From a virus (taxonomy: Duplodnaviria; Caudoviricetes), in IMG/VR virus record IMGVR_UViG_3300011412_000002, positions 1 to 44,244 of that record: DNA of 44,244 nucleotides. The stretch is one strand, 5' to 3'. The stretch's first letter is position 1; each line of letters opens with the position of its first letter. This document shows positions 264-42,176 of this stretch, piece after piece. The position numbers and the translations under genes were made by a program. The notes beneath the pieces are model-generated. The model did not search any database. It had not been told where the DNA came from and saw nothing but the letters and a program-made list of their open reading frames with translations.

Positions 264-358
264 GTCGCACCGCTTTACGAGGGGTGGGGGTAGGATGGGG
301 GCGAGATGACCGATCGGTCAGCCCCCCCCACCCCCTCCCCCTCGTTAAGCGGTGCCAC
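264..358. repeat. Composite inverted element: motif A (rev, 271-283) - palindrome B (307-320) - motif A (fwd, 339-351)
   Basis: gtcgcaccgctttacgaggggtggggg is nearly the reverse complement of ccccctccccctcgttaagcggtgccac; tgaccgatcggtca lies between them, directly after the capsid stop. Confidence 0.85.
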
Positions 359-680
359 CCGAGATCTGGGCGCCGGGGTGGCCGACCCGATCCTGGTCGT
401 TACCCTCGACGCCCGCCACGTCGAGACGGTGCTGCGGGCGCACCGCCTGCTGCGCCCCACGCTCGAATGGGCGGACGAGGTCAACCGCGCCGATCGGGTG
501 ATCGCCGTCTGCGAGCGGGCCCTGCGGATTCACCGGGACTGGATCGAGGAGCGAGAACGTGCCAGCGAAGACCGCCAAGCAGCAGAGGTTCTTCGGCGCC
601 GAGAAAGCGCGGCGCGACGAGGGCAAGGCGCCCCGCGTGAAGGGGATGTCCGACGCCGAGGTCGACAAGATGGCGCATAA
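306..680 (+). CDS. Hypothetical protein (start uncertain; 3' third overlaps the next gene)
   Basis: The central part has phage-like codon usage; the N-terminus is made of motif B and motif A sequence. Confidence 0.4.
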   Translation: MTDRSAPPTPSPSLSGATRDLGAGVADPILVVTLDARHVETVLRAHRLLRPTLEWADEVNRADRVIAVCERALRIHRDWIEERERASEDRQAAEVLRRRESAARRGQGAPREGDVRRRGRQDGA

Positions 681-702
681 GGGGAAGGGCAAGCGGAAGT
701 GA
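559..702 (+). CDS. Small basic protein, DUF3008-like (MPAKTAKQQRFFGAEKARR...GMSDAEVDKMAHKGKGKRK), not in the ORF track
   Basis: GAGGAG RBS then GTG; MPAK-x-K-x-QQ and MS-x-x-E-x-x-x-MA pattern recalled for DUF3008 phage proteins; GTGA overlap with the next gene. Confidence 0.65.
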   Translation: MPAKTAKQQRFFGAEKARRDEGKAPRVKGMSDAEVDKMAHKGKGKRK

Positions 703-1313
703 CGGCCCCCCTGCTGCGTAACGTCGCCCTGGCCACCCCGCGCTCCGGCGCCGCCGGGAGCCAGGGGCGGGTCACCGAAGCGATCGTCTCCTGCTACACC
801 GGGCGGCACTCGACGCCGTGCTACATCGAGGTGGAGTACGGCCCGACGACGTCCTACGGGACGACGACCCCCCGCACGCCCACCGCCGGCTACCACGAGA
901 TGCCGGTGAGCGGGCTGACGCCGGGCGGGTACTACCACTTCCGGGTGAAGGCGACCGACCCGACCGACGCCGGCAACCCTACCTACTCGCAGGACTACAC
1001 GTTCACCCAACCCCCCGACGTGGTGCCCCCGGGCCCCACGATCGTCAACCAACCCATGACGGGGATCACGACGACGGGGGCCACCGTCAACTGGACGACC
1101 AACCCGGCGCAGCCCCCGGGGACGGTGCAGTACTCGACCTCGCCCAGCCTCGTGCCGCTGCTCAGCGCCACCGAGGGCGGGGGCAACGTGACCACCCACA
1201 CGCGCCCGCTGACGGGGCTCACGCCGGTGACCCGGTATTACTACCGGATTGTGCAGCCGGGGGTCACCGGGGGCGCCACCGTGGGCAGCCTGCAAACCTT
1301 CCTGACCGTGTGA
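699..1313 (+). CDS. Tandem fibronectin type III (Fn3)-domain virion protein, probable capsid decoration
   Basis: Two repeats of the type V(E/Q)Y...H...(V/L)xGLTPxxxY(H/Y)(F/Y)R(V/I); located near the capsid gene. Confidence 0.75.
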   Translation: MTAPLLRNVALATPRSGAAGSQGRVTEAIVSCYTGRHSTPCYIEVEYGPTTSYGTTTPRTPTAGYHEMPVSGLTPGGYYHFRVKATDPTDAGNPTYSQDYTFTQPPDVVPPGPTIVNQPMTGITTTGATVNWTTNPAQPPGTVQYSTSPSLVPLLSATEGGGNVTTHTRPLTGLTPVTRYYYRIVQPGVTGGATVGSLQTFLTV

Positions 1314-1326
1314 GAGGAGACCGCAG

Positions 1327-1590
1327 ATGGCCGAGCGCAAGCAGACCAGCGAGGAGCGGGCGCACGTCGAGGCGTCGAAGGCGGTGGGGCAGCAGCTCGG
1401 GCCCCGCAAGCTGGGGGGCACCATCATCGAGGCGGACGGGCGAGTGACCTACACCCGGGACGGCGCGCTGCGCGCGACGCCGAACGGGCCCCTCGACCCG
1501 ACCATCATCCCCGACCAGTTCCCGGAGCACGGGCAGGAGCTGAAGGTCGTCGACCGGGGCGACGCCGCGCCCCTGACCGGCGACAAGTAG
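1327..1590 (+). CDS. Hypothetical protein (structural module)
   Basis: GAGGAG RBS, ATG start, abuts the next gene. Confidence 0.7.
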   Translation: MAERKQTSEERAHVEASKAVGQQLGPRKLGGTIIEADGRVTYTRDGALRATPNGPLDPTIIPDQFPEHGQELKVVDRGDAAPLTGDK

Positions 1591-4188: not shown

Positions 4189-5337
4189 ATGGGCAGCGTC
4201 GTCTTACTCCCCCTGGCCCCGGAGCCGGCGCTGCCGGGCGAGCCCGTCTCGCTGGCGGACGTCGAGCGGGAGACCGCCTCCCGGCTGGGCCCCTTCTTCG
4301 ACCTCGTCGCCTCCGGCGGGACGCCCGACACCGTGCTCGTCGCCGGGCTGCGCTCCAGTGCCCCGTTGGGGGGCTACGAGGGGCTGTGGCTGCTGCGCCG
4401 GGACGCCGTCCGCACCAACGACCGCGTCCGCACGGTGACCGTCTACAACGGCCCCAACGGCAGCCTGGGGGTGGACTTCCCCTACGAGGACACCCCCGTC
4501 GCCGGCGAGCGGGTCGAGCTGCACCACCTGCACCCCGACCAGCAGCTCTTCGTCGACGTCCTGGCCGCCCTGCGCCGCTGCTACCTGCTGGACACGCTGG
4601 CCGTCGCGCCCCCGGCCCCCCCGGCCGAGGCATACGTCGCCCTGGCCACCATCCGGGAGGTGAACGGCTGGGTGGTCAACGGCCACGCCGACACCACCGC
4701 CCCCACCCCCCGTGCCCCCCACCCCTCGTTAAGCGGTGCCACCCGGAGCGCCTCCGGCGGCTCGGTGGTCGACCTGACGGCGCAGGCCTTCTGGCTGCAC
4801 GACCCCCGGCAGGTGCTGGCGGTGGGCTCCGACGGGGCCCTGCTGCCCCACGTCGGGCGCTACGGGGACGACCGCGCCGGGGGCTGGACGTGCTACGCCT
4901 CGCGCGGGAGGGTGTACCTCAACGTGCCCACGGGGGTGCCCCTGGACACCCTGGTGGTGCGGGCCTACCGGGACGCCTTTGGTTTGGTGAACGGGGAGGA
5001 CGCGCCGAGCGGGCCCGTCTTCGACGGCGACGCCGACGAGCTGGCGGTGCCCCTAGACTACATCTGCGCCTTCGCCCACATCGAGGCCTGGCGGCGCCAC
5101 CGCGACCGCCTCGAAGCGAGCGCCGCCGAGGGGCGCTTCGCCACCCAGAGCGAAGCGAGCACTGAGGCCACCCGCGTCGCCAGCCTGTACGCCGACTTCT
5201 TGTTCCGCCCCCAGACCGAGCGGGGCGACCGCATCGCGCTGCCCTTCGGCGCCTCGGGTCAGACGGTGAACGGGTTGGGTGGGAGCGGGGCCCTGACCGG
5301 GGCGGTGGTGAACATCAACGATCCCTACGCCGACTGA
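4189..5337 (+). CDS. Probable head-tail adaptor / tail tubular protein A-like
   Basis: AAGGAG RBS; position between fibre and nozzle-like gene; helical C-terminus (VPLDYICAFAHIEAW). The function is inferred from synteny. Confidence 0.5.
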   Translation: MGSVVLLPLAPEPALPGEPVSLADVERETASRLGPFFDLVASGGTPDTVLVAGLRSSAPLGGYEGLWLLRRDAVRTNDRVRTVTVYNGPNGSLGVDFPYEDTPVAGERVELHHLHPDQQLFVDVLAALRRCYLLDTLAVAPPAPPAEAYVALATIREVNGWVVNGHADTTAPTPRAPHPSLSGATRSASGGSVVDLTAQAFWLHDPRQVLAVGSDGALLPHVGRYGDDRAGGWTCYASRGRVYLNVPTGVPLDTLVVRAYRDAFGLVNGEDAPSGPVFDGDADELAVPLDYICAFAHIEAWRRHRDRLEASAAEGRFATQSEASTEATRVASLYADFLFRPQTERGDRIALPFGASGQTVNGLGGSGALTGAVVNINDPYAD

Positions 5338-5365
5338 CCGATTGGTCAAGGTAGACTGAGCGCAG

Positions 5366-7576: not shown

Positions 7577-7613
7577 GCGGCGCCTCGCTTAACGAGGGGT
7601 GGAGGGTGGGGAC

Positions 7614-9164
7614 ATGACGGTGTTGCTGGGGACGATGTCCCTGCCCGCGCCCGAGGACGCCGACCTGGTGCGGACGTACCTCAACGGGACGCACGGCAGC
7701 GGGGGGCTGTGGGAGGCCCTGACCCGGTCGAGCAACCACGACCACACGGGGGGCGCGAACGGGAAGCCGATCTCCATCAGCTCGATCCCAGACGGCTCGA
7801 TCACGACGGGCAAGCTTGACCCCAGCGTGCTGCTGCCCTACGCGCTGGTCGACGGGTCGAAGCCCTTCACCGGCCAGGTGACGATGCAGGCCGACGCCAT
7901 CGTCCGCGACGCCCTGTACTTCGGCCAGCAGGGGAGCGCGGTGGCCCCGGACGCGACCCTCACGCGGACGGGAGCGGGGGCGCTGCGGGTGGACACCCAC
8001 CTGGGGGTGGGTGTGAATCCGGCGGCGTGGGGGGCGGCCGACCGGGTGATCCAGGTCGGGCAGACGGGGGTCGTGCGCGGACAGGCGGCCGGACAGAACG
8101 TCTACGTGCAGGACAACTCCTACAGCGACGGCACGAATAACCGCGCCATCGTGGCGGGGTTCTCCTCGCTGCTCAACCTGACTGGCGGGGGGGTCACGGC
8201 GTATACCGCGCCCTCCGTCGCGGCGGGAGCGACCCAGACGTTCACGCAGCGGCTGAGCCTCGGCAACACCGGCACCCTCACCCTGACCCCGGATGGTGGG
8301 CAACCCTCCCTGGTCATCGGAACGGCATCGGGTGCGGGCTCAGCGGCCATCCAGTACCGCAGCGACGACAACGTGATCCGCTGGTCGGCGGGCATCGACA
8401 GCGCCGCGAGTGGGAAAGACCTCATCTGGTATCACGCCCCGGCTCCGGCGGGGGTGAAGGCACGACTGGCGACCACCGGCACCCTCACCCTGACCCCGGA
8501 TGCGGGGGTAACCGGGCTGACGGTCACGGGCACCGCAGCGGGAGCCGCCATCGACTTCTCCGGGGGCACCCAGTTGATCCGCAACGGGGCAGGCAACCTG
8601 CTGTTCCACGCCGGGGCGCCGGGCGTGGTCGGCCCCGCCCTCGACAACACCGTCAGCGCCGGGGGCGCGAGCAACCGCTACGGCAGCGTGTGGGCCGTGA
8701 CCGGGACGGTCAGCGCCTCCTCCGCGGCCGTCAAGGAGGGCATCACCCCCCTCGACCCGGCCGCCTGCTACCAGGCGGCGAAGGACGTGCGCTGGTACGA
8801 GTTCGCCTACCTGCCCATGACCTACGTCGCACCAGAACCGCCCCCGGACATCGCCTACGACGCCGCCGACGACAACGAGACGAAGGCCGCGAAGAAGGCG
8901 GCGCGGGACGAGGCCGAGGCGGCGAGCAAAGCGGCCCACCTGAAGATGGTGGCCGAGACGGCCCCGGCCCGGCACCAGCGGGGGTTCGTGTTCCCCGCCG
9001 GGGCCGAGAGCAAGGACGAGGCGGGTGGCACTTTGCCCCCGGTGCCCGACCTGTTCGGCCTTTCGGATCGGCAGTCCACCACCCCGCAGGCCGACCTCGC
9101 CACGCTGGGTTGTGCGCTGCAAGAGGTCATCCGTCGCCTCGAAACACTGGAGGCGCAGCCATGA
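7614..9164 (+). CDS. Tail fibre/spike with C-terminal intramolecular chaperone (peptidase S74-like)
   Basis: Gly/Thr-rich beta repeats; S-S-x-x-x-K-x-x-I-x-x-L (SSAAVKEGITPL) followed by WYEFAY, RGFV and a terminal coiled coil (ALQEVIRRLETLE). Confidence 0.75.
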   Translation: MTVLLGTMSLPAPEDADLVRTYLNGTHGSGGLWEALTRSSNHDHTGGANGKPISISSIPDGSITTGKLDPSVLLPYALVDGSKPFTGQVTMQADAIVRDALYFGQQGSAVAPDATLTRTGAGALRVDTHLGVGVNPAAWGAADRVIQVGQTGVVRGQAAGQNVYVQDNSYSDGTNNRAIVAGFSSLLNLTGGGVTAYTAPSVAAGATQTFTQRLSLGNTGTLTLTPDGGQPSLVIGTASGAGSAAIQYRSDDNVIRWSAGIDSAASGKDLIWYHAPAPAGVKARLATTGTLTLTPDAGVTGLTVTGTAAGAAIDFSGGTQLIRNGAGNLLFHAGAPGVVGPALDNTVSAGGASNRYGSVWAVTGTVSASSAAVKEGITPLDPAACYQAAKDVRWYEFAYLPMTYVAPEPPPDIAYDAADDNETKAAKKAARDEAEAASKAAHLKMVAETAPARHQRGFVFPAGAESKDEAGGTLPPVPDLFGLSDRQSTTPQADLATLGCALQEVIRRLETLEAQP

Positions 9165-9427
9165 CCGAACGGTCGAACGGGGGCGCACCGCTTTACGAGG
9201 GGGAGGGGGGTAGGGTGATCGAGCTGGGCCCGGCCACCCGCAAGCAGCTCGAAGCGGTGCTCGGGCAGGCCGCCGGCGGGCTGCTGGCGGCGGTGATCGA
9301 GGCCGCCGGCTACGAGCTGGAGGACGGCTGGGCCCTGACCATCGGCCACGCCACGCTCACCCGCACCGCCCCGCAGCGCAACGGCGCCCCTCCCCACCCC
9401 CACCCCTCGCTAAGCGAAGCCACCTGA
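9161..9427 (+). CDS. Hypothetical protein bracketed by motifs B/A at the start and A at the end (alternative GTG start at 9215)
   Basis: ATGA overlap with the fibre gene; GGAGG RBS. Confidence 0.55.
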   Translation: MTERSNGGAPLYEGEGGRVIELGPATRKQLEAVLGQAAGGLLAAVIEAAGYELEDGWALTIGHATLTRTAPQRNGAPPHPHPSLSEAT

Positions 9428-11139: not shown

Positions 11140-12204
11140 GTGTGGAAGCGGGAGGTCGTCCCGACCATCCTGCTCCTGCTGTGGCTGCTGCTTGCCATCT
11201 TCCTGGCGTGGCTCGTCCTGACGGTGGTGCCGGGGACGGCTTATGGGCAGCCCGGCCAGTGCGACCGCACGCCCCCGCCCGCCGCACCGACGCCTGATCC
11301 CAGGCTGTGCGCTACGCTGACGCCCGGGAGCCCGACATGGACAGCGACGCCCAACCCGCCACCCCCGACGAGCGTATCGACGCAACCGACCCCCACCCCG
11401 CTCACCCCGTCACCAACGTCGTCGTCCACGCCGGCGACGCCGTTGTCCCCGACACCACCCCCACCAACGCCGAGTTCCGCCTCTACGACGCCGGGGGGAG
11501 GCACTACGCCACCCTCATCGCCCGCGCCATCAGCGACGGCGCCTACCGCGTCGCCACCGTCCGGTACGTCGGGCGGAAGCTGCTGCCCCTTCGTCCCCTC
11601 GACGTCTCCCACATCCTCCAGCCCGACACCCCCCCCGTCTCCGACGAGACCACCACCTACACCATCACCGTTCCCGTCGACCCCGGCCGCCCCGACCTCT
11701 ACGCCACCGCCGTCGTCCACGCCCACCTCCACTGGCACCCCGACTTCCGCCCCGGCGACCGAGGAAGCGCCCGACACAGCCACCCCCACCCCCACAGCGG
11801 CACCGACGTCCACCGCGCCTCCCTCGCCGGCCACGACGACGACCCCCACGAGCACCCCCACCCCTAACCCCTCGTTAAGCGATGCGCCCACCGCGCCTCC
11901 GGCCACCCCGGCTCCCCCGGTTGTCGTTACGGTGGTGGTCACGGTGGAGGTGGAGGTGGCGGCCACTGTCCTGGTTCCGGGCCCTGCGAGCACGGTGGTG
12001 GTGGTGGTTACGGCAACACCCGCTGCTGGAGGAGGAGGTGTCGTTCCGGGCCCTGCTGGCGGGGCTGCTGGCGATCGTGCTGTTCCAGATGCTGCTGCTG
12101 ATCCTGTCCCGCTCGTAGCTCCGCTGGTGGAGGTGGCGCTGTTGGGCGCCTCCGGCCTCGCCGGGTTGGGGCTCGGGCTGCTGCAAGTGCGGCGTGGCCG
12201 ATGA
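11140..12204 (+). CDS. Pro/Thr/Ser-rich membrane-anchored protein (N-terminal TM or signal, C-terminal TM plus RRGR)
   Basis: Hydrophobic termini with normal codon usage; long low-complexity PTS core that overlaps two nested ORFs. Confidence 0.6.
   Translation: MWKREVVPTILLLLWLLLAIFLAWLVLTVVPGTAYGQPGQCDRTPPPAAPTPDPRLCATLTPGSPTWTATPNPPPPTSVSTQPTPTPLTPSPTSSSTPATPLSPTPPPPTPSSASTTPGGGTTPPSSPAPSATAPTASPPSGTSGGSCCPFVPSTSPTSSSPTPPPSPTRPPPTPSPFPSTPAAPTSTPPPSSTPTSTGTPTSAPATEEAPDTATPTPTAAPTSTAPPSPATTTTPTSTPTPNPSLSDAPTAPPATPAPPVVVTVVVTVEVEVAATVLVPGPASTVVVVVTATPAAGGGGVVPGPAGGAAGDRAVPDAAADPVPLVAPLVEVALLGASGLAGLGLGLLQVRRGR
11337..11867 (+). CDS. Nested overlapping ORF (different frame) with His-rich C-terminus
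   Basis: GGGAG RBS 6 nt before ATG 11337; protein-like sequence (EFRLYDAGGRHYATLIARAISDGAYRVATVRYVG); the stop abuts a motif A copy. Confidence 0.45.
   Translation: MDSDAQPATPDERIDATDPHPAHPVTNVVVHAGDAVVPDTTPTNAEFRLYDAGGRHYATLIARAISDGAYRVATVRYVGRKLLPLRPLDVSHILQPDTPPVSDETTTYTITVPVDPGRPDLYATAVVHAHLHWHPDFRPGDRGSARHSHPHPHSGTDVHRASLAGHDDDPHEHPHP
11882..12118 (+). CDS. Nested overlapping ORF (third frame): Trp/Arg-rich peptide with C-terminal TM helix
   Basis: Over about 12020-12118 this frame uses G/C-ending codons almost exclusively (CTG CTG GAG GAG GAG GTG TCG TTC...), while the long frame uses GCT/GAT/GTT/CCT codons. Confidence 0.5.
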   Translation: MRPPRLRPPRLPRLSLRWWSRWRWRWRPLSWFRALRARWWWWLRQHPLLEEEVSFRALLAGLLAIVLFQMLLLILSRS

Positions 12205-12475
12205 CACCCACGAAATCAACCCGCCCCCCGACGAGCTGCGGACGCGCGCCTTCGTGGTGCGCGAGGCGGCGGCGCTGGTCTTCGTCGCCGCCTGGCTCTT
12301 GCTCTTCGCCGGCGAGCTGCTGACCGGGCGCTACACGCTCCCCTTCTGGTACGACTGCGTCGCCGTGGCCGTGCTGGGGTACGCGCTGGGAATGAATCTA
12401 GGAGAGCTGGTGGCCAAGCCCCCCAGCAAGCGGGCGGTGGCGAAGCGGGCGGTGGCTTCGCTTTACGAGGGGTAG
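12194..12475 (+). CDS. Two-TM membrane protein, holin candidate
   Basis: Two hydrophobic helices and a basic C-terminus; last gene of the lysis cassette. Confidence 0.6.
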   Translation: MADDTHEINPPPDELRTRAFVVREAAALVFVAAWLLLFAGELLTGRYTLPFWYDCVAVAVLGYALGMNLGELVAKPPSKRAVAKRAVASLYEG

Positions 12476-12485
12476 GGGGGGCAAA

Positions 12486-12523
12486 CAGAAGCGCCGCTGA
12501 CCGATTGGTCAGCGGCGCTTCTG
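12486..12523. terminator. Long hairpin between convergent genes, centred on palindrome B
   Basis: cagaagcgccgc-tgaccgattggtca-gcggcgcttctg; T-rich run (tttg) follows on the minus strand. Confidence 0.7.
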
Positions 12524-12581: not shown

Positions 12582-12851
12582 CTAGGGCGTAGCGGGTACG
12601 GTGGTGGCGCGTCTCCCCCGCACCGGGGGGTTGGCCTTGTTCAAGGCGTTGCGGGCCCGGATCGCCTCCTCGAAGTAGCCGTTCAGGCTGAGCCCCTCGG
12701 CGTCCGACCACTCCCGGGCGTCCGCGAAGACGTCGGGGTTGATCCGCAACGAGGTGTTCACCTTCAGGGCGTGGCGGATGCGGCCCCAGCGGTCGTCGCC
12801 GGTGGCCTCGATCTTCTCGGCGGCGTCAGCCGCTGCGGTGGTGGTTGCCAT
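12582..12851 (-). CDS. Ribbon-helix-helix (Arc/CopG-like) DNA-binding protein, repressor candidate
   Basis: VNTSLRINPDVFADAREWSDAEGLSLNGYFEEAIR matches the RHH beta-alpha-alpha pattern; GAGGAG RBS; divergent from the recombination operon. Confidence 0.7.
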   Translation of the reverse strand: MATTTAAADAAEKIEATGDDRWGRIRHALKVNTSLRINPDVFADAREWSDAEGLSLNGYFEEAIRARNALNKANPPVRGRRATTVPATP

Positions 12852-14621: not shown

Positions 14622-15273
14622 ATCGAGACTCTGGAAAACCGGCTCGATCGAGCAGGCCCTCGCCGTCATCCTGATGGGGCGGGAGCTGGGCATCGGGCCC
14701 ACCACCGCCCTGTCGAACATCATCATCAGCGCCGGCAAGCCCACGCTGGGCGCCTCCCTGGTGGGGGCCCTGATCCAGAAGAGCGGGCGCTACAGCTACA
14801 AGGTCACCGAGATGACCGACCAGCAGGTGTCGATCGACTTCTTCGAGGGGCCCCGCCCGCTGGGCACCTCCACCTTCACCCTGCAGGACGCGCAGCGGGC
14901 CCGCCTCTCGGCCTCGCAGACCTGGCAGCAGTATCCCCGCAACCTGCTGCTAGCCCGGGCCCTGACCAACGGGGCGAGGTGGTACACGCCCGGCGTGTTC
15001 GGGGGCGCGGTGTACGACCCCGAGGAGTTCGCCACCCCCGGCGTGCTCCCTCCCCCGGTGGAAGAGATCCCGACCGACGCGACGTTCACCCCTGCCCCCT
15101 CCCCCTCGTTAAGCGAAGCCACCATCGAGGGGCTGCTGGCTGAGTACAGTGCGGAGCAGATCGTGGCGGCGAACAACGGCAGGCTGCCGGCGACGGAGGA
15201 GGAGCTGCGTGCGGTGGCCGGACGGCTCGAACACATCCGGGAACTCGGCGGCGAGCCGGCGCCGGTGGGTTGA
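14575..15273 (+). CDS. RecT/Redbeta-like single-strand annealing protein
   Basis: ILMGRELGIGP..AL..I.I..GKP.L, FT..DA.RA.L, W..YP..LL.ARA pattern. Confidence 0.75.
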   Translation: MNEYEQLRQLAEALHKSRLWKTGSIEQALAVILMGRELGIGPTTALSNIIISAGKPTLGASLVGALIQKSGRYSYKVTEMTDQQVSIDFFEGPRPLGTSTFTLQDAQRARLSASQTWQQYPRNLLLARALTNGARWYTPGVFGGAVYDPEEFATPGVLPPPVEEIPTDATFTPAPSPSLSEATIEGLLAEYSAEQIVAANNGRLPATEEELRAVAGRLEHIRELGGEPAPVG

Positions 15274-15384
15274 CTGGGTGGCCGGCTTCGTCGCCGGGAT
15301 CGCCGTGACGCTGTGGCTGACGCGTGGTTGACGAGCGCCCTCCGGTGACGGGGGCGCTTCGCTTTACGAGGGGTGGAGGGTGGG

Positions 15385-15621: not shown

Positions 15622-15892
15622 GCGCTGGCCGGACGAGGAGCTGTGGAGCATCACCGGGCACGACGGGCAGTTCCCGTTTCATTGCAAGGTGGTGGTGGCC
15701 GGCGGGGTGGTGCGGATGGCGCCGCTCCTGGCGGCGTGGACGCAGGGCCGGGTCTGGGCCGACGTGGCGCAGACCTGCGCCGAGCGGGGCTGGATCGTGG
15801 CGCACGTCGACACCGAACTGCGCCAGCTCAGAGAGCAAGAGCGGGCGCGCGTCGAGCGGGGCGTGACCCAGCTCGGGTTGGAGATACCGTGA
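15590..15892 (+). CDS. Hypothetical protein
   Basis: ORF with phage-like codon usage; GTGA overlap with the nuclease gene. Confidence 0.5.
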   Translation: MRTAGKTVLPKRWPDEELWSITGHDGQFPFHCKVVVAGGVVRMAPLLAAWTQGRVWADVAQTCAERGWIVAHVDTELRQLREQERARVERGVTQLGLEIP

Positions 15893-16728
15893 CCGAACGG
15901 TCAGCACTGAGGTCCTACCCCCCGCAGCACCTGAGTTCGTCGTCGGTGGACTTGCTGACCGACTGCGGCAAGCTGTGGTACGGCAAGTACGCCCGGGGGG
16001 TGCAGGAGAAGCGGGGCGACGGCCTCATGCTGGGGGCGGCGTTTGATGGCGCGGTGGAGTGGGCCCTGCGCCGGCGGTGGGACGGGCACTGGGTGACGGC
16101 CGAGGAGCTGGCGAAGCGCTTCGTGGCCGAGTGGGACGCCGGCCTCGCCCGGCCGGGCGAGATCGACTGGGGCACCCGGGGCCAGGAGGGGGCGCTGCAA
16201 GACGGGCTGACGCTGTGCCAGGCGCCGGCGACGCTGGCGGCGCTGCGGGCGATCGACCTGGCGCCGCACCCCGACAACCCCGACGCGCCGGGGCTGCAGG
16301 TGGAGGTGAAGCTGGCCGTGCCCGGGGTCAGCGTGCCCGTGATCGGGTTTGTGGATGTGCTGGCCAAGACGTCGACGCCGTCCGGGCCCGGGACGCTGAT
16401 CCTGGACGTCAAGACGGCCCGCCGGGCGTGGAACAAGGGCCGGGAGCGCAAGGAGCTGCAGGCCCGCATCTACGCCGCCGCGCTGTGGCAGGCCGGGGCC
16501 CCGTTTCCCACCCTGTCGACGGGGTACTGGGTGTTCATCCCGGGGATGACCCCCGAGGCCTGCCGGGTGCAGCGCCTCGACCCGGCGCTGACCGAACGGG
16601 ACGTGCTGTTGACGATGGATTTGCTCCGGCGAAGCTGGAGACAAATCGAAGCGGGCACGTTCGTGGGCAACCCGCATTCGTGGCGGTGCACGCCGCGCTG
16701 CCCGCTGTGGTCGGAGTGCTACGGCTGA
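15889..16728 (+). CDS. PD-(D/E)XK RecB/Cas4-like exonuclease
   Basis: HLSxSS...C, G.A.D, GFVDV, ILDVKT, LQARIY, and C-terminal CxxxCP...C cluster. Confidence 0.85.
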   Translation: MTERSALRSYPPQHLSSSSVDLLTDCGKLWYGKYARGVQEKRGDGLMLGAAFDGAVEWALRRRWDGHWVTAEELAKRFVAEWDAGLARPGEIDWGTRGQEGALQDGLTLCQAPATLAALRAIDLAPHPDNPDAPGLQVEVKLAVPGVSVPVIGFVDVLAKTSTPSGPGTLILDVKTARRAWNKGRERKELQARIYAAALWQAGAPFPTLSTGYWVFIPGMTPEACRVQRLDPALTERDVLLTMDLLRRSWRQIEAGTFVGNPHSWRCTPRCPLWSECYG

Positions 16729-17871: not shown

Positions 17872-17925
17872 CGAGGGCTTCGCTTTACGAGGGGGAGAGA
17901 TCGGTCGGGATTCTCCCCCGGGGGC

Positions 17926-18604: not shown

Positions 18605-18635
18605 TCCCCTCCCCCTCGTAAAGCGTAGCCACCCA

Positions 18636-18659: not shown

Positions 18660-18675
18660 GCCTGTCTGTGGAGTG

Positions 18676-21081: not shown

Positions 21082-21116
21082 CGCGGTGGTTTCGCTTTAC
21101 GAGGGGAGGAGGGAGC

Positions 21117-21344: not shown

Positions 21345-21353
21345 GAACCGGAC

Positions 21354-23691: not shown

Positions 23692-23737
23692 CCCCTGCTC
23701 CTCTCCCCCTCGTAAAGCGTAGCCACCCGTGATCTCG

Positions 23738-26054: not shown

Positions 26055-26066
26055 GTGACCGAACGG

Positions 26067-26546
26067 TCAGGTTTTGAGGGCGGTCTCGGCGTACCTGGCG
26101 CAGATCTCCAGGAAGGCGGCACCCAGCACCACCTCCCACTCGTCCCGGGTCAGCTCGCAGCCGGCGGTGCAGGCGGTGACGGGGCGGGGCTCGTCGCCGG
26201 GCCCGACCGCCAACCGGGGCGTCGCCGTCAGCCCCAGCCCCACCGCCAACCGCCCGTCGCTCATCTCCAGGGGCAGCGCCGCGTAGTGCAGGGAGAAGCT
26301 CACCACCACCACGCCCCGCACGTCGTCGTGCAGCTCGGGGTCTTCCAAACACCGGGGGCAGTCCATCGCCCGGTTCAGGTGCACGCCCTGGCCCCCCATC
26401 GGGAGCACGAACAGATCCTGCACCGGCGGCGGGCAGACCGGCAGGGGAGGCGCCGGCTGCCCCCCCACCACCTTCACCTTCCTCCCCCTCGTTAAGCGAG
26501 GGGAATTCGCGGTGAAGCCGATCGGCGCGTCTTTCGAGTGGCTCAT
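26067..26546 (-). CDS. Hypothetical protein (Cys pairs)
   Basis: AAGGAG RBS; CPRC...CTAGC. Confidence 0.5.
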   Translation of the reverse strand: MSHSKDAPIGFTANSPRLTRGRKVKVVGGQPAPPLPVCPPPVQDLFVLPMGGQGVHLNRAMDCPRCLEDPELHDDVRGVVVVSFSLHYAALPLEMSDGRLAVGLGLTATPRLAVGPGDEPRPVTACTAGCELTRDEWEVVLGAAFLEICARYAETALKT

Positions 26547-26555: not shown

Positions 26556-27476
26556 TTACGGCAGCTTCGGCAGGGCGCCGGCGATCGTCGACCGGAGCAG
26601 CTCGCCGTAGACGGCGAGGGCGACCCCCTCCGGGCTGCCGGCGGCGGTGGGGGTCATCATCGCCGCCACCTGCTCGATCAGCGCGGACAGCCCGTCGAAG
26701 AGGGGTTTGCGGGACAACGGGTTGTCGACGGAGAGGCGCCGGGTGCGGACGTCGTCCGCCAGCTCGAAGAGCACCTCGCAGTTAACTTCGACCGGCGTGG
26801 TCACCGCAACCCCGTTGGTCGACGGCGCCGCCACGCCAACATTGGGGCCAACATTGGGGGCAGCGCTTGACGAGGGGGAGGGGGGCGACTGCTGGGCCCC
26901 CGTGCGCCGGGTGTGGGCGGTGACGTTGGTGACGGTGCCGTTGCTGGCCTGCGTGGCCGAGCCCGCGCGGGCCCGCGAGGTGCCCGCCCGGCGGTTGGCG
27001 CCGGCGTCGGCCAGCGCCTGGTCGACGAAGCCCTTCAGGAAGACGCCGGTCAGACGCCCGGCCGGGTTGAGCATCGGATCCTGGCTGGCGGCGAGGGCCC
27101 GCACCCACGTCCCGGCGGCGGTGGCCACGTCCGTCTTGTTGATGAGCACCGCCAGGTCGCGCGCCTGCCAGGGGTTCTGGGGCAGGTCGGCCTCCCGCAC
27201 GCCGAAGTCCCGGAGCTGCTGCACCTGGTTGAAGGCGTCGATTTTGCGGTCGGCCTCGCGCTTGCCGAAGCCCCACCGTTGCTCGGTGTACTGCTCGAAG
27301 CTGGCGTAGGCCCGGTCGGGGTCGACGGCGAACAACTGCTCGTCCCGGATCTGCTGCAGGATCCCGCCGGCGGCGATCTTGCCGGCCTCGATCAGCTCCA
27401 GGGTCTTCTCCAGGTCGAAGAGGCGGGCGCGCTGGGCCTGGACGGCGGTCTTCTGGGCGCTGGTCATCTGGGCCAT
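26556..27476 (-). CDS. Phage DNA-binding protein (DUF3102/KorB-HTH-like N-domain)
   Basis: G..LQQIRDEQLF...YASFEQYTEQRWGFGKREADRKI.A...LPQN..QAR.L pattern; AAGGAG RBS; own promoter. Confidence 0.6.
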   Translation of the reverse strand: MAQMTSAQKTAVQAQRARLFDLEKTLELIEAGKIAAGGILQQIRDEQLFAVDPDRAYASFEQYTEQRWGFGKREADRKIDAFNQVQQLRDFGVREADLPQNPWQARDLAVLINKTDVATAAGTWVRALAASQDPMLNPAGRLTGVFLKGFVDQALADAGANRRAGTSRARAGSATQASNGTVTNVTAHTRRTGAQQSPPSPSSSAAPNVGPNVGVAAPSTNGVAVTTPVEVNCEVLFELADDVRTRRLSVDNPLSRKPLFDGLSALIEQVAAMMTPTAAGSPEGVALAVYGELLRSTIAGALPKLP

Positions 27477-33026: not shown

Positions 33027-33368
33027 CCGGCGGCGCTCGTAAGAACGACGCACATTCTCCGAGGTGGTCACGTACTCCAGGTTCGTCAGGCGGCTATCGC
33101 CCCGATCGTTGTTCAAGTGGTCGATGTCGTGACCGATCGGTCGAACCCCAACGAAGGCAGCGAGGACGACGGCGTGGACGTAGGGGTTGTGCTCACAGCG
33201 ACTGCGCGTCAGGCGGACGCGCAGATACCCGTCTCGGCTGTACCGCTGGCACAGCACCCGCCCCGGCGGGCGACGCCCCTTCCCCTTCCCGATCGTCCGC
33301 ACCCGCCCCAGGTCGCTGATCTCGTAAAGCTCCTCCCACCCGGGGATCGGTCGCCACTCTTCATCCAT
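32997..33368 (-). CDS. Free-standing NUMOD4-HNH homing endonuclease
   Basis: EEWRPIPGWEELYEISDLGRVR (NUMOD4); VHAVVLAAFVG.RP....IDHLN.DR.D.RL.NLEYVT.SEN (HNH). Confidence 0.9.
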   Translation of the reverse strand: MDEEWRPIPGWEELYEISDLGRVRTIGKGKGRRPPGRVLCQRYSRDGYLRVRLTRSRCEHNPYVHAVVLAAFVGVRPIGHDIDHLNNDRGDSRLTNLEYVTTSENVRRSYERRRLLSKEVVAS

Positions 33369-33388: not shown

Positions 33389-36300
33389 ATGGACGGGATG
33401 CTGCCCCCGGTCGACACCGGCGGCTGGTTAAATTATCAGCGCCGGCGCGCTCAGCAATTTGCAAGAGAGCGGATCGCCCGGGCCGGGCAGATCGGCCAGG
33501 TGGGCGGGGACTGGCTGTCCCGCGCCGGCACCTCCCTGGACAACCTCCTGCCCGACTGGGCGAAGGAGGAGGCCCCGCGCCCCAACCTGCCCCAGATCAC
33601 CCCACCCCCCTCCCCCTCGTTAAGCGAAGGGAATTCGGGCGGCCTGCCGGACTGGGCCCGCAGCGCGAGCGACCGCATCGGGCAGATCGGCAGCGACCTC
33701 GGCGGGGTGATCGACCAGGCGCAGGGCATCCTCCCCGGCGGGGAGGCGTGGAACGCCGACTTGGAGCGCATCCGCCGGGAGCGGGAGGCGTCGGAGGCGC
33801 GGTTCCCGCAGCCGGAGCCGGGCCCCACCGGGATGGTCAACCAGACGGGTACACCGGAGGGCGAGGCGATCACGTCGGCGCTGGCCGAGACCGCCCAGCG
33901 GGAGACCCCCGGTGGGCAGTTTGCGACCAACATGGCCCGGCGCGCGGCGGGCCCGGCCTCGGGCCCCATGACGGCCGACACGCCGGTGCAGAACCTGGCC
34001 GGCATGGCCGGGCTCGCCTTCCAGAACGTCGGCGCGCCCCTGCCCGGCGGGCGGGCGATCGGCGCCGGGTTGCTGCCGGATATGGCGGCGCGGGCGGCGA
34101 CGGAGGCCATCCCGGGCGGGGAGACGTCGGTGCTGGAGGGGGCCCAGATCCCGGAGTGGGTGCCGGGGTTGGGTGGGCAGAGGCTGACCAAGGACACCCC
34201 TGTACTGGGCGGGCTGACCACCCCGGACGAGGCGATCCCGTTCGCGGTGGGGGCGAAGTACGGTGACCCCGACCAGCTCGCCGGCGGCTTCGACGACGTG
34301 CTGCGGGCCTCGCAGGGAGTGGCCCGGCGCTTCGGCACGCGGGCGGACGAGGGGTTGGGGGCGGTGGCCGGGCGGGGGCTGCGCCCGGAGCGCAGCGAGT
34401 TCGGCATCGCCGCCGACGAGTTCACCCCCCGGGACATCGAGGGGTTGGTGCTGGACGGGGCCGAGGGCACCGCCGACGAGTTGCGGGCGCTGCCCGGGGC
34501 GCCGGGGCACAGCAGCACCTCGCCGGGCGTCGCCCGCACCCGCAGCGAGCGCCCGGGCCCGGGGATGGAGGCGGTGCGCGAGGCGCCGACCCCCTACGAG
34601 TACCTGAAGGGGATGGCCTCGGACTACGAGCGGTTCCGGGACTTCTACCCCGACTTCGGGCGCTTCTACCGCAGCCTGGCCGAGCCGGCCGGGGAGCAGT
34701 CCGAGGGGCTGTTCAACGAGCTGGGGGCGATGTGGGCGGCCACGGCAGCGCAGACGGCGCCCCACGACAACTTGATCAAGGCCTTGCAGGCGTCGATCGC
34801 CGCCCGCAAGTTCCGGGAGCTGACCGGGAAGCTGCCGAACCAGGACGAACTGCTGTACCTGCTGCGGACGGGCGAGGCCGCCCCGGGGATGCGCTACGAC
34901 CGGGTGCGGGCCAACCCGAAGCTGCAGATCGAGGCGAAGCTCGACCCGGTGCTGGGCCCCGAGGGGGTCATCGCCAAGGTGCCCGAGGCGAAGCTGGAGG
35001 GGGGCGCCGCCAAGATCACCAGCGACGACGCCAAGAAGATCGCCGCCATCTGGGAGGAGGGCGGCATCGACATCCCCACCAACTTCAAGCTCACCGCCTT
35101 CAACATCCTGAACGCCCTGGCGGCGCGCAACGAGCACGCCCCCTGGAGCGTGATCGACACGCATATGTTCCGCCTCTTCGGCTACGGCGACGAGGCCCGC
35201 AAGATCAAGGCGGGCGACCTGGCCGGCAACCCCACCGCCTCACGCTACGTTCAGGCCACCGTCAAGCGGCTGGCGGACGAGCTGGGTTGGGAGCCCCACC
35301 AGGTGCAGTCGGCGCTGTGGTACGGGGCGAAGAACGAGATCAGCCGGGTCGACGTGAAGAACGCCACCATGAAGGGGGGCGCCGCCGAGTTCGCCGGGAT
35401 GCCGGAGGGCACCGTGGTGGACGACGGCACGCTGGCCTACTCCATCCAGAAGGCGTGGGACGCCGGGGTGCTGCCCAACTTCTTGAAGAACTACGCCCCG
35501 CAGGGGCCCATCAACGAGATGAGCGGCGGGGCCCGGGTGCGCTTCACCGGGCCGATCGGGCCGGGGAACTTCGGGAAGGGGCCCTCCCAAGCGCGGGGCG
35601 TTCGCCTCTCTGGCAAAGACCCGGTTACGGGCCAGAAGTACGGGCGCTTCCGGTTGGACATGCCCGAGCAGGAAGGGGCCAACGCCTGGGCTGAGAACCG
35701 GGGCTACACCACCACCGTCGACGCCGGGCCCCAGGAACTCGACGCGCTGGGCTACGACCGGGACACCGGCAAGATCCGGGCGCTGACCGAACGGTCGATC
35801 CCTCACGCGGTGACGGAGAACGTCGACGGCAGCACCTCCGTGCAGCTCTTCGCCCGGGCCGACGCGCCGGCGCAGGAGGCGCAGGACGTGCTGGCCGGGG
35901 CGCTGGGGGGCGACATCCCCCAGATGCACCGCCCGATCCTGGAGACCCAGCAGGGGCGTTTGGGGCCCTCTACGGGGCAGGCGTTCCAGCTCGATAAGGC
36001 GGACGGGGCCCGCTGGACGCTGGCCGAGGTGCAGGCCGCCCGGCGCTCCGGGCTGCCCATCCGCATGTCCCCGGACGGGTTGTCGCTGGTGGCGCGGGCG
36101 GACGACCTGCCCTCGGGGACGACGATCGCTGACCTGCAGCGGGAGTTGGAGGCGGCCGGGGCCCCGCCCCTGGAGGCGCAGGCGGTGGACGTGCGGACGC
36201 TGCCGCCCCGCACGCAGGCGCCGGGGGCGGTGGATACGGTGGGGGCCGTCGCCGGCGAGGAGGGCGCCGGCGAAGCCGGCGATGTGCAGTCGGCGCTGCA

Positions 36301-38507: not shown

Positions 38508-39719
38508 ATGGCGAACGAGCCGGACTGGGTCAAAGACCTCCTGGGGTCGAGCGCCACCACCTACCGCCCACCCGAGCAGCGCACGAGCGGGGGCGACGAT
38601 GACGTGGCGGGCTACATCCGCAGCGCCGCCGCCAAGCGGGGCATCGACCCGGAGACCGCCATCAAGGTGGCCCAGAGCGAGGGCGGGTTGGTGCCCAACC
38701 GCACCGGCTCCTTCAAGACGGGCAAATCGTTCTGGCCCTTCCAGCTCCACTACGGCGGGCCCGGCTACGAGCAGTTCGGCACCACCGCCGGGATGGGCAA
38801 CTCGTTCACCGCCCAGACCGGGCTGCAGCCCGGCGACCCCAACGCCTGGCGGCAGGCCACCGACTACGCGCTCGACGCCGCCGCGAAGAACGGCTGGGGC
38901 GCCTGGTACGGGGCCCGCAACGTGGGCGTCACCGGGCGCCAGGGCATCGGCACCGCCCCCTCCGCTCCCGCCGCCGCGGCTCCCGCTGCGACCGATGGGG
39001 CCCCGGATTGGGTGCGCGATCTGATGGGAAGTTCGGTTGCGGGGAGAAACGGTCAGCCCCTTATCTCCACCAACAACAGCAATACGGAAGCCCCCGACTG
39101 GGTGCGCGACCTCCAGGCCTCCTCCCCCTCGTTAAGCGGTGCGAGCAGGAGTACGCCGAGTTACGCCGGTGCGGCGCAGACCGACGAGATCTGGCCGGTG
39201 GCGGGGCAGCGCTGGGGGCAGGTCAACAACCCCTTCGGCGGCACCCAGGCGCGCAGCGCCGGCGCCACCGTGGCCCTACCCAGCCAGAACGTGGGCGCCG
39301 ACCTCACCGCCCGCTACGGGGCCCAGGTGGTGGCGCCGGTCTCCGGCACGGTCGTGGAGGCGTTCGACGCCCCCAACGAGACCGACCGCAACGCCAACCA
39401 CGGCTGGGGCGGGATGACCCTGCTGCGGGGCGACAACGGCTACTTCTACCGCATGAGCCACGCCAAGCCCGGCAGCGTCGCCGCGCAGCCGGGGCAGCGG
39501 GTGGCGCAGGGGCAGCCGCTGCAGCAGGTGGGGGTGAGCGGCAACACCACCGGGGCCCACCTGGACTACGAGAAGTTCGACCGCCCCGGCCACTTCGTCG
39601 ACCCCGTCCAGGGTCGGGGCGGTACAGTGGCTTCGCCTAACGAGGGGCGGGGGTCTGCGGTGACCGATCGGTCACCAACGATGCCCGACTGGGTGCGCGA
39701 TCTGATGGGAGCCAGGTAG
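38508..39719 (+). CDS. Virion-associated peptidoglycan hydrolase: lysozyme/transglycosylase-like domain plus M23 peptidase domain
   Basis: IRSAAAKRGIDP..AIKVAQSEGG...PFQL...GWGAW; then GADL.A.YGAQVVAPVSGTV...SH...GQRV..GQ....VG.SGNTTGAHLDY. Confidence 0.8.
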   Translation: MANEPDWVKDLLGSSATTYRPPEQRTSGGDDDVAGYIRSAAAKRGIDPETAIKVAQSEGGLVPNRTGSFKTGKSFWPFQLHYGGPGYEQFGTTAGMGNSFTAQTGLQPGDPNAWRQATDYALDAAAKNGWGAWYGARNVGVTGRQGIGTAPSAPAAAAPAATDGAPDWVRDLMGSSVAGRNGQPLISTNNSNTEAPDWVRDLQASSPSLSGASRSTPSYAGAAQTDEIWPVAGQRWGQVNNPFGGTQARSAGATVALPSQNVGADLTARYGAQVVAPVSGTVVEAFDAPNETDRNANHGWGGMTLLRGDNGYFYRMSHAKPGSVAAQPGQRVAQGQPLQQVGVSGNTTGAHLDYEKFDRPGHFVDPVQGRGGTVASPNEGRGSAVTDRSPTMPDWVRDLMGAR

Positions 39720-41648
39720 ATGCCGGACAACAACCCGTACCCGAACAGTCCGGCGAATTGGTTCCTGGATTGGTGGGCCCAGCAGCAGGCGAAGCGGTTG
39801 GGGACGCCGGTGCCCGGCACAGTTCCGGCGCCGATCCAGGCGCCCGGGGCCCCGGGGGGCTTCGTGGCGCCGGGGAACCCGGCGGCGCCGGGTGGCCCGA
39901 GCACGGATTTTGGCCCGGCCCCGAGCACCTCGACGGCTGCGGTCGACACCTACGACACCACGTACCCGTACCCGGAGAGCACCACCGACGACCTGGAGCG
40001 GTACGAGAACAACCGCAAGAAGATCGAGAACGACGTCCACGAGGTCGGGAAGATCCTGAGCGACCCGACCAAGCCGGCCGACCACCCCGACAAGATCGAG
40101 GCCCAGAAGCGCCTCGACACCTACAACATCCAGTACCAGGCGGCGATCGACCGCATCGCCCAGGAGAAGAACCGGCGGGCGGACAACGCCCGGGCGGACG
40201 CCGACAAGCAGCGCCAGATCGACAAAGAGAGCAAGGCCGAGGCCGAGAAGCGCGACGCCACGCCCAAGAACGGCGACACGCGCAACATCCTGCGGGAGTG
40301 GACGGATCCGCAGGGGCGCAAGATCACCGGCATGGTCACCGAGACCTACAACAACGGGGTCTGGGGCTACGTCAAGGGCAGCGCCACCGCCGACACCGGC
40401 ATCCCCGCCGGGCCCGGCGAGCGGCCCTCGGTCATCACGGACGGGCAGGGCACCTACTGGACGGTCGACCCGACCACCGGGCAGGCCAGGTCGATCACCG
40501 GCCCGAAGGCGGCGGCGAAGACCATCACCGACCCGGACGGCAACATCTGGCTGCAGAACCCGGACGGCACCAAGGGCTCCAAGCTCTTCGACGCGGCGCC
40601 GAAGACGGTCACCGACAACGGGCGGATCATCGCCTACGACCCCCGCAGCGGGGCCAAAATCTTCGAGACCGACACCAAGACGCCGGAGGGCCGGGCCCTG
40701 GCCGACCGGCTGGAGCGGGCCAACGTCGCCGCCGCCGAAAGGCAGGCCGACCCCCAGTTCGCCAGCGCGATCGCCCAGTACCGGGCCGAGGCCCAGCGCC
40801 GGCAGGGCCTCGCCCGCACCGAGTTGGCCCGCCTGCAAGACCTCCAGAAGTCGGGGCAGCTCAGCCCGGAGATGGCCGAGGCGCAGTTCGACACCTGGAT
40901 GCAGACCAACGTCGAGGGGCCCCTGGCCGGCTTCAAGGCGGCCGCCGAGCAGGAGCAGCGCAAGCTGGAGCAGGAGAACCTCACCCGGCAGAACGCCGAG
41001 GAGGGGCGCGTCGAGACCGCCAACCGGGAGCGGGGGCGCCTCGCCTACGAGGCCGACACCGCCGGCCGTGCCATCTCCCGGGAGATCGCGCAGCGCACGC
41101 GGGCCCCGGAGTTCATCCGGGACACCGGCAAGCTGGCGGCCTCGCTGGCCAGCGGGCGGACGGACTTCGCCTTCTCGCCCGAGAGCCTCGACCCGGCCAA
41201 CTTCAAGAAGGCCCTGCCCAACATGGACGAGCTGGCGGACAAGGCGGTGCAGCGCCTGTTCTCGTTCGTCCCCGAGGCCCGGGCTCGCAACGTCAACGTG
41301 CCCCTGCCGGAGATGCCCTCGGGCGATAACCTACGGGGCATGATGGATCAGGTGCGGTACACCCCTTCCGCCGGCGCCGCGGGCGGCGTCGGGGCCGGCA
41401 GCCAAGTGGCCGAGGGGCAGGGCGCGGTCGATCTGAAAGACCAGGGGCGGCCGGGCTGGGCCCGCACGGTCTACCAGAACGGGAAGTACGAGGACTGGGA
41501 GATCCCCACCACCTCCTCCGGCCAGATCGCGCAGCTCGCCGCCGGGGCCCCGCCGCCGGCGATGGCGAGCGGCGGGCTGCCCGGCCAGCAGGAGGGCGAG
41601 ACCGAGGAGCAGCGTCAGGCGCGCTGGCGGGCGATCATGTCCCGCTAA
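39720..41648 (+). CDS. Probable internal virion / ejection protein (coiled-coil plus short beta repeats)
   Basis: ITDGQG/ITDPDG/VTDNG beta-hairpin repeats and long helical segments; operon context. Confidence 0.55.
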   Translation: MPDNNPYPNSPANWFLDWWAQQQAKRLGTPVPGTVPAPIQAPGAPGGFVAPGNPAAPGGPSTDFGPAPSTSTAAVDTYDTTYPYPESTTDDLERYENNRKKIENDVHEVGKILSDPTKPADHPDKIEAQKRLDTYNIQYQAAIDRIAQEKNRRADNARADADKQRQIDKESKAEAEKRDATPKNGDTRNILREWTDPQGRKITGMVTETYNNGVWGYVKGSATADTGIPAGPGERPSVITDGQGTYWTVDPTTGQARSITGPKAAAKTITDPDGNIWLQNPDGTKGSKLFDAAPKTVTDNGRIIAYDPRSGAKIFETDTKTPEGRALADRLERANVAAAERQADPQFASAIAQYRAEAQRRQGLARTELARLQDLQKSGQLSPEMAEAQFDTWMQTNVEGPLAGFKAAAEQEQRKLEQENLTRQNAEEGRVETANRERGRLAYEADTAGRAISREIAQRTRAPEFIRDTGKLAASLASGRTDFAFSPESLDPANFKKALPNMDELADKAVQRLFSFVPEARARNVNVPLPEMPSGDNLRGMMDQVRYTPSAGAAGGVGAGSQVAEGQGAVDLKDQGRPGWARTVYQNGKYEDWEIPTTSSGQIAQLAAGAPPPAMASGGLPGQQEGETEEQRQARWRAIMSR

Positions 41649-41770
41649 AGCCAGGACAGCAGGATGCGCCAGCCGATGATCGCCAGCCCGGAGGCGACGT
41701 AGCCCGCCATCCCCACCCCGAGCACCAGCACCAGCAGCAGGAAGGCCCACTCGATCGGGTGGATCTTCAC
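41645..41770 (-). CDS. Small membrane protein (MKIHPIEWAFLLLVLVLGVG...), not in the ORF track
   Basis: GTGA overlap with the upstream minus-strand gene; entirely hydrophobic. Confidence 0.5.
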   Translation of the reverse strand: MKIHPIEWAFLLLVLVLGVGMAGYVASGLAIIGWRILLSWL

Positions 41771-42063
41771 ACCCCCCACCCCTCGTAAAGCGAGACCACC
41801 GGGGACGACAACCCCGGGTCGAAGGCCAGTGCGCCCCGGTCGCGCAGGAAGCGCAGCCGGCGCACGCCCCGCTCCAGCAGGTGGCGCACCGCCAGCTCCG
41901 TCTTGCCCAGCTCGCGCGCGATCGAACGCAGCGAGCGGGGCTGCCCGTTGGCGACGCCCAGCGCCCGGTAGAGCACCACGCGCTCCTCCCGGGGTAGGCG
42001 CCGCAGGTGGTTGATGAGCAGGGCCGTCAGCTCTTCGGGGGTCAACGGTTCGTCAGCACTCAT
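41767..42063 (-). CDS. Sigma70 region-4 HTH domain protein (stand-alone)
   Basis: LRRLPREERVVL....G......SLRSIARELG.T...VRHLLERGVRRLR. Confidence 0.8.
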   Translation of the reverse strand: MSADEPLTPEELTALLINHLRRLPREERVVLYRALGVANGQPRSLRSIARELGKTELAVRHLLERGVRRLRFLRDRGALAFDPGLSSPVVSLYEGWGV

Positions 42064-42069
42064 ACATCT

Positions 42070-42099
42070 ATGATAGCAGATGGTAGCTACTGATGTGGA
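42070..42099 (-). promoter_or_regulatory. Probable leaderless promoter for the sigma-R4 gene, containing a GTAGCTAC box
   Basis: Minus strand TGn-TATCAT 6 nt before the ATG at 42063. Confidence 0.55.
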
Positions 42100-42176
42100 A
42101 AGCCAATGACCGATACGGTGGTTGCGCTGACCAATCGGTCAGGATTACCCTGTGTCTCGGAAGGCGTAGTGTGTAG

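Follow-up and report, generated by a model that had tools for sequence, protein, structure and literature searches.

The window analysed here, the whole 44,244-nt stretch of the tailed phage (Caudoviricetes) record IMGVR_UViG_3300011412_000002, carries two classes of short dispersed sites, an asymmetric word (motif A) and a palindrome (motif B), both of which we consider very probably to be selected sites read by phage proteins. Their spacing is kept while the positions of the sites and the core of A change between lineages, and the pattern is genuine and recurs in one independent relative. As to readers and function, we tentatively favour a lattice of binding sites for two proteins, by which a genome that does not integrate would be organised and repressed. 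The record is a complete circular phage genome with direct terminal repeats, whose 123-nt overlap reduces it to a 44,121-bp circle, and its G+C content is 72%. Genes were called as codon-score picks, and 54 open reading frames (ORFs) were scanned against PHROGs and Pfam.

Motif A, CGCTTWACGAGGGG, is a 14-bp core present in 23 copies at no more than one mismatch (chance mean 0.01), and motif B, TGACCRWWYGGTCA, occurs 13 times (chance mean 0.07). The score of the position weight matrix falls past the last copy of each, from 32.0 to 9.7 after the 23rd A and from 20.8 to 13.4 after the 13th B. Counts and coordinates of the A and B clusters described in a first-pass annotation of this DNA were confirmed. 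The copies of A, 14 on the minus and nine on the plus strand, are as follows.

271..284, plus strand: motif A, intergenic, after the capsid module
338..351, minus strand: motif A, intergenic, pairs with the copy at 271
4722..4735, minus strand: motif A, antisense within gene 4189-5337, in a segment largely missing from motif-free homologues
7586..7599, plus strand: motif A, start codon 14 nt on, tail could serve as ribosome-binding site
9189..9202, plus strand: motif A, start codon 12 nt on
9403..9416, minus strand: motif A with one mismatch, antisense, end of gene 9215-9427
11868..11881, minus strand: motif A, occupies the spacer between two ORFs
12459..12472, plus strand: motif A, end of gene 12194-12475
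15102..15115, minus strand: motif A, antisense, linker of the RecT-like gene
15360..15373, plus strand: motif A, at a gene start
17881..17894, plus strand: motif A, intergenic
18612..18625, minus strand: motif A, 7 nt past the vWA gene
21093..21106, plus strand: motif A, left of the putative origin and pointing in, equivalent site in relatives L055 and L062
21888..21901, minus strand: motif A, right of the putative origin and pointing towards it
23706..23719, minus strand: motif A, 14 nt ahead of a leftward start codon
24715..24728, minus strand: motif A, leftward early region
26485..26498, minus strand: motif A, 7 nt ahead of a leftward start codon
26864..26877, plus strand: motif A with one mismatch, antisense, disordered linker of protein P0001
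30195..30208, minus strand: motif A, 23 nt past the putative portal gene
33613..33626, minus strand: motif A, antisense, within the 1,705-aa gene
39125..39138, minus strand: motif A, antisense, linker of gene 38508-39719
39634..39647, plus strand: motif A with one mismatch, near the end of gene 38508-39719
41779..41792, minus strand: motif A, end of the sigma70_r4 gene

The copies of the palindromic B are given without strand.

307..320: motif B, between the A copies at 271 and 338
5335..5348: motif B, on a stop codon, TAGACT hexamer 3 nt later
9162..9175: motif B with a terminal mismatch, on a stop codon
12498..12511: motif B, centre of a longer perfect palindrome (12486-12523) between convergent genes
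15890..15903: motif B, on a stop codon
21812..21825: motif B, within the end of gene 21354-21881 (putative small terminase)
24155..24168: motif B with a terminal mismatch
26056..26069: motif B, at the end of gene 26067-26477 and ahead of a promoter-like AT-rich tract, position shared with relative L061
27946..27959: motif B, between divergent genes, TACACT hexamer 6 nt later, upstream of the putative portal gene
33130..33143: motif B with a terminal mismatch, intergenic
35784..35797: motif B with a terminal mismatch, middle of the 1,705-aa gene
39661..39674: motif B, in gene 38508-39719, near its end
42128..42141: motif B, between divergent genes, TACCCT hexamer 4 nt later

Gaps between B sites range from 1,890 to 5,922 bp, with a coefficient of variation (CV) of 0.37 against about 0.9–1.0 in the nulls, an evenness that was significant for uniform placement (P ≤ 3e-4), for three junction nulls (P ≤ 1e-4) and for four spacer-size nulls, in which placement was limited to spacers of at least 0, 25, 45 or 70 nt (P ≤ 2.3e-4). 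It depends on the four copies with a terminal mismatch, the perfect copies alone giving P = 0.10. B by itself yielded no periodogram peak (P = 0.73), so that 'evenly spaced' fits it better than 'periodic'. The ~3-kb periodicity that the first-pass annotation had ascribed to A and B jointly was nonetheless recovered for the joint set, as a peak at 15 cycles per circle, or 2,941 bp (P = 0.003 for uniform placement, 0.002–0.018 for junction nulls). Its companion statement, that no gap between sites exceeds about 4.4 kb, is numerically right (largest gap 4,384 bp; 5,512 bp for A alone and 5,922 bp for B alone) but the bound is not significant (P = 0.32 uniform, 0.08–0.13 junction nulls). Taken together, the 23 A copies are not significantly even (CV 0.73, P = 0.09); when the strands are split post hoc, the 14 minus-strand copies are (CV 0.37, P = 1.6e-4; strand permutation on fixed positions, P = 0.0015) and the nine plus-strand copies are not (P = 0.18). 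All eight neighbouring A pairs less than 800 bp apart are opposite in orientation (P = 0.0024), which bears out their description as inverted pairs. Co-clustering of the two motifs fared less well: B does lie within 80 bp of A at five of its 13 sites, but junction-restricted placement explains this (P = 0.07–0.12). In a rotation test at 800 bp, B was near a minus-strand A at 11/13 sites (P = 0.008), with P = 0.06 for B to all A and medians that were not significant.

The spacing could have followed from gene boundaries alone, the outcome that the first-pass annotation had named as fatal to its proposal; comparison of gap-size variance with junction-restricted placement shows that gene boundaries do not explain it. 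This bears on an alternative that we rate as improbable, namely that A and B are ordinary dispersed regulatory sites (operators, stoperator-like or start-associated sites), about one set per transcription unit, whose evenness is a by-product of operon length. Placement lends it some support: 12 of the 13 B sites lie no more than 150 bp from a gene spacer, several are on stop codons or beside −10-like hexamers (3–6 nt from three of the 13 window sites; 1–6 nt from six of 36 B sites, an observed rate whose expected value carries caveats), six of the 23 A copies, in sense orientation, have a start codon no more than 15 nt away, so that the tail could double as a ribosome-binding site, and small DNA-binding proteins have been acquired, and CI lost, in this clade. 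All nulls limited to spacers nevertheless reject it, if approximately, spacers not being real transcription units; known systems are not even by the same statistic (L5, Corndog and R751, below); A is not oriented with transcription (12 copies co-directional and 11 opposed, by tally); and copies are written into gene interiors.

Such interior copies are frequent, with nine of the 23 A sites wholly within genes, six of them antisense, and three of the 13 B sites wholly inside genes while four more overlap gene ends. The six antisense A copies share one common reading frame, all in Pro/Ser-rich linkers, and the sites in gene 4189-5337 sit in a segment largely absent from motif-free homologues. 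A common frame is also what might be expected if A and B were repeats of a selfish or neutral kind that linkers tolerate and that multiply through local duplication, through gene conversion or by way of the RecT-like annealase, and nearer A copies do have more similar flanks (Mantel rho −0.195, P = 0.0016). Rank-adjacent A copies, however, are not more similar (P = 0.27), local copying yields clumps rather than minimum gaps of 1.0 and 1.9 kb, B is unchanged in three lineages, and the PHROGs and Pfam scans of the 54 ORFs turned up neither a transposase nor a site-specific recombinase, so that we regard this origin as highly improbable.

Relatives were gathered by capsid, terminase and pattern scans, and 24 records were counted after setting aside duplicates (L012, L018, L060 and loci lying within G records), L014 and L075–L081 as distant, and twelve motif-free metagenome loci of 1.2–3.9 kb. 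Eight of the 24, the window and seven relatives, carry B plus one A variant, and the other 16 have neither, save one stray B (G006) and one generic A-like match (G005). Three variants of A were found: CG-CTTWA-CGAGGGG in the window, CG-TATGR-CGAGGGGG in G002 and L061, and CG-CCTYY-AGAGGGG in G004, L020, L028, L055 and L062. Thus the A core switches in all copies of a lineage together, with B unchanged across the three lineages. If the motifs were host-factor sites (Chi, KOPS, an uptake sequence or a host operator), they should abound in host chromosomes and be common to all phages of the host. B is found, in at most two copies, in 14 of 121 Actinomycetota genomes sampled, one of them the unpublished G130 (this may not be the host's group), and, the stray G006 copy aside, in none of the motif-free relatives.

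Replication comes from G002 (23 kb, 55% complete), whose ten B sites are even (CV 0.32; P = 0.0008 uniform, 0.0004 junction). Five of them have an A copy at most 100 bp away (P = 0.005), and the evenness of A is borderline (P = 0.04–0.06). Judged by eye from gene context, five of the ten match window positions and five are elsewhere. With the shared five held fixed, the other five G002 sites fill gaps (P = 0.0019 uniform, 1.4e-4 junction), and the mirror test in the window gave P = 0.023. Spacing is thus kept in a relative while sites move, as the first-pass annotation had asked of related genomes. Since the gene-boundary nulls are rejected and this relative keeps the spacing, a function needing a site every few kb is supported; the first-pass preference for such a function over ordinary gene-specific regulation is less secure, for with three of the 13 B sites beside a −10-like hexamer regulation is possible too, and some B sites probably double as operators.

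Arrangements local to these lineages were also seen. The longer palindrome around B at window 12486-12523 recurs in G002 with identical layout and different arm sequence, which suggests a terminator hairpin built around B between the convergent genes. In G004-type phages, two A copies form a tight near-perfect palindrome just past the capsid gene, with B 4 nt away, a B–A spacing that recurs in G002 at 13511/13529. The palindromes with their B sites are at:

L020:1063-1099
L010:11148-11194
L028:748-794

Two complete motif-free relatives encode an integrase and an XRE repressor, and the window has neither: the scan of its 54 ORFs detected no integrase, no CI-like repressor and no ParA. The association of motifs with this gene content amounts to one evolutionary event, in a single clade. 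The putative portal (window 27979-30171) is 77% identical to that of motif-free G003 and 49% to those of G001 and G005, indicating that phages with and without the motifs exchange structural modules. Stepwise DNA entry, among the functions first proposed, is disfavoured, as relatives with homologous virion genes (capsid 78–82% identical) have no motifs. A related possibility, which we consider quite improbable, is a self-mark for a translocating machine, whereby bound sites stop a nuclease (from host defence, or the phage PD-(D/E)XK or ERCC4 protein) or license terminase packaging. A processive motor arriving from either side would be well served by bounded gaps and by clusters with one site on each strand, the terminases of motif-bearing phages form a long-stemmed clade, and RecT-like, PD-(D/E)XK and ERCC4 proteins are encoded in the window. 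Yet G005 has the same recombination nucleases and no motifs, and the maximum gap, where the tightest bound would be expected, is the weakest of the A+B statistics under the junction nulls.

The main rival to a lattice of bound proteins concerns replication, and two features of the window are relevant:

18673..21081, plus strand: Prim-Pol/D5 primase-helicase (Pfam Prim-Pol/D5_N/DUF5906), the candidate reader of A if A is a priming site
21116..21345, no strand: putative replication origin with inverted iteron pairs

In this scheme, A would be the priming site of the phage Prim-Pol/D5, with its core read on the template strand and the adjacent pyrimidine tract copied into a G/A-rich primer, giving one site per strand every ~3 kb for lagging-strand or rolling-circle synthesis, and B would serve separately, as an operator or helper site. 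We judge it unlikely, though far from negligible. The minus-strand copies of A are by themselves even round the whole circle, same-strand copies are never less than 1 kb apart, and A at 21093 (plus) and 21888 (minus) converge on the iteron origin, the left site being kept in L055 and L062. The core of A runs on into a ~15-nt tail that in the window is G-rich and C-poor (C fraction 0.01–0.09), the base 5′ of its own site is where NrS-1 PrimPol begins (PMC8718748), and the Prim-Pol is just 48–50% identical between lineages. However, the same Prim-Pol module is present, at 35% identity, in G005, which lacks any such motif; the known sites described in that source span 3–8 nt rather than at least 14; and strand choice is also explained by coding, the in-gene copies being mostly antisense and the six sense copies close to starts. 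Polarity about the origin, claimed at first for perfect copies to its right, stands for those (8/8 on one strand, Fisher P = 0.015) but not with all 23 copies (P = 0.20), and G004 has A in both orientations far from the origin. Moreover, the tail of A is much shorter in the G004 lineage than in the window, and priming leaves B unexplained.

Two observations concern the same elements. At least four G runs within 42 nt occur in 11 of the 23 A tails (background ~2%), for example at 4722, 9403, 30195 and 33613, so that G-quadruplex formation is possible; tails in the G004 lineage are shorter. Inverted iteron pairs directly 3′ of the Prim-Pol gene have a related core in L055:1440-1700 and a different core in G005:26500-26740, and the replication module at window 16850-18604 encodes a DnaJ-domain protein and a vWA protein, also present in G005 and partly in G002.

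Under the favoured two-protein lattice, phage-encoded proteins would dock at A and B and coat the DNA in ~3-kb units. Five putative DNA-binding proteins are encoded in the window, one of which weakly resembles the ParB/KorB DNA-binding domain:

26556..27476, minus strand: P0001, 306 aa, candidate reader of B
12582..12851, minus strand: ribbon–helix–helix (RHH)-like protein, candidate reader, putative DNA-contact strand invariant in 12/12 aligned sequences
23329..23691, minus strand: small protein, RHH-like by eye and without Pfam support, 39% identical in L061, candidate reader of A
23738..24082, minus strand: coiled-coil and winged-helix-like protein, candidate reader, Pfam AbiEi_4 E = 7e-5 (below cut-off), 66% identical in L061
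41767..42063, minus strand: sigma70 region-4-type helix–turn–helix (HTH) protein, candidate reader, 55% identical in G002, no counterpart found in the 12.4-kb G004 fragment

B, palindromic and invariant, may be read by a dimer of P0001 or, alternatively, by the invariant RHH-like protein, whose own label is weak (hhalign E = 4.8e-4, probability 32%; BrnA E = 0.019). In a structure model P0001 has an N-terminal helix, an HTH/helical-bundle domain, a linker and a C-terminal helical domain, and the HTH/helical-bundle domain resembles, in a weak match, the DNA-binding domain of ParB/KorB/SopB. No Pfam match to the ParB N-terminal (CTPase) domain was obtained, the modelled N-terminus being one long helix, and tblastn found no match to P0001 in the phage collection. 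This ParB-like domain is fused to DNA methylases in seven of 41 homologues scanned. Among the homologues P0002–P0019, several linkers still show, as peptide (PSPSLSGA, PSLNAS), the trace of an embedded A site, which hints at possible further A variants. The asymmetric A would have as its reader, with one site on each strand, a phage protein that evolves faster, and its lineage specificity would follow from this. Each nucleation site would act ~1.5 kb to either side by spreading or bridging, in which case selection would work against wide gaps while close duplicates would bring no benefit, and a site overlapping a promoter would also act as an operator, like KorB and KorA on IncP plasmids. A 387-aa coiled-coil protein encoded in G002:2696-3859 and G004:3674-4837 has no match among the window ORFs.

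In outline, the system resembles the KorB/OB and KorA/OA operators of IncP plasmids (PMC11790492, PMC2665229 and PMC13768133, as far as consulted), with about a dozen dispersed 13–14-bp palindromes (12 OB in R751, 13 B here), a second, partly co-locating operator class and an element-encoded protein with a ParB-type DNA-binding fold, in our case a weak match. It is not a KorA/KorB member, because P0001 has no CTPase domain and the ORF scan revealed no ParA; moreover, OA is a palindrome over the −10 element whereas A is asymmetric, and the R751 OB sites are not evenly spaced (12 sites, CV 0.73, P = 0.22) as B is. Borrelia ParZ is a looser parallel, working at one locus with ParA according to the portion of PMC9712426 consulted. 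The 17-bp dyad repeats of Cluster O likewise are palindromes specific to a phage without integrase, found both within its genes and between them; in the sections consulted (PMC4351075) they are mostly away from promoters, of unknown function, and in a genome with a ParB-like gene, Corndog gp90 being annotated as a ParB-like nuclease-domain protein. They differ in sequence (TGTTCGG-N3-CCGAACA), form one motif class and are denser towards one end, the 34 Corndog dyads giving a CV of 1.06 and clumping towards one genome end, in contrast to even B. A shares with Cluster A stoperators, as described in the parts of PMC6550527 consulted, asymmetric 13–14-bp sites, 20–30 per genome, and a lineage-specific consensus; stoperators are, however, oriented with transcription, have no second palindromic lattice and are uneven in L5 (26 sites, CV 1.16, same gap statistic). 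For a gp71-like immunity repressor, the cognate protein of stoperators, PHROGs and Pfam gave no repressor-family match among the 54 ORFs, L5 gp71 itself not having been compared directly.

Cluster K SAS/ESAS elements also pair an asymmetric, Shine–Dalgarno-like repeat, in some cases, with an inverted repeat that varies by subcluster (PMC3203893, in part). SAS lie almost all directly before starts in one orientation, as just six of the 23 A copies do, and here it is the asymmetric word that varies and the palindrome that is fixed. Sites of archaeo-eukaryotic primases (AEP; NrS-1 PrimPol and pRN1 ORF904), again from the consulted part of PMC8718748, share the Prim-Pol-plus-helicase architecture and a template geometry compatible with A, the cognate Prim-Pol being encoded in the window and the copied tract lying 5′ of the site on the template; they differ in being shorter, and an even lattice is not reported in that part. 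Searches of open-access literature text, supplements aside, yielded no account of a lattice of two evenly spaced motifs. The A/B lattice belongs with the dispersed phage binding-site systems, as a variant of that kind.

Beyond the genes above, the window encodes a major head protein, a terminase, tail fibres and M23 peptidases, the RecT-like, ERCC4 and PD-(D/E)XK proteins accompanying the Prim-Pol/D5 primase-helicase. Three small HNH-related ORFs or fragments are at 10363-10536, 24738-25079 and 27546-27926. Strong local repeats (~15 and 9 copies of 9-mers) were seen in two unrelated viral contigs, L036 and L044.

Dispersed phage repeats such as stoperators, SAS/ESAS and Cluster O dyads are thus known, several of them without a function, and the three known systems tested are uneven. 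Spacing kept during site turnover points instead to a process with a ~3-kb length scale rather than to gene-by-gene control. Possibly, although we hold this with considerable doubt, a clade of soil or sediment phages has swapped integrase-plus-CI lysogeny for a genome-tiling code, a new kind of system in which an invariant palindrome lattice would be read by a CTPase-less ParB/KorB-fold protein and interleaved, strand-specific lattices of a lineage-specific word by a second reader, perhaps the primase-polymerase itself. Selection would then act on spacing and not on position, to maintain self-made chromatin or a priming grid of ~3 kb. The small, expressible candidate readers and the three natural A variants make reader identity, co-evolution, spreading and priming testable in vitro, and if P0001 spreads or bridges without a CTPase domain, this would bear on how ParB-fold domains work in phages.

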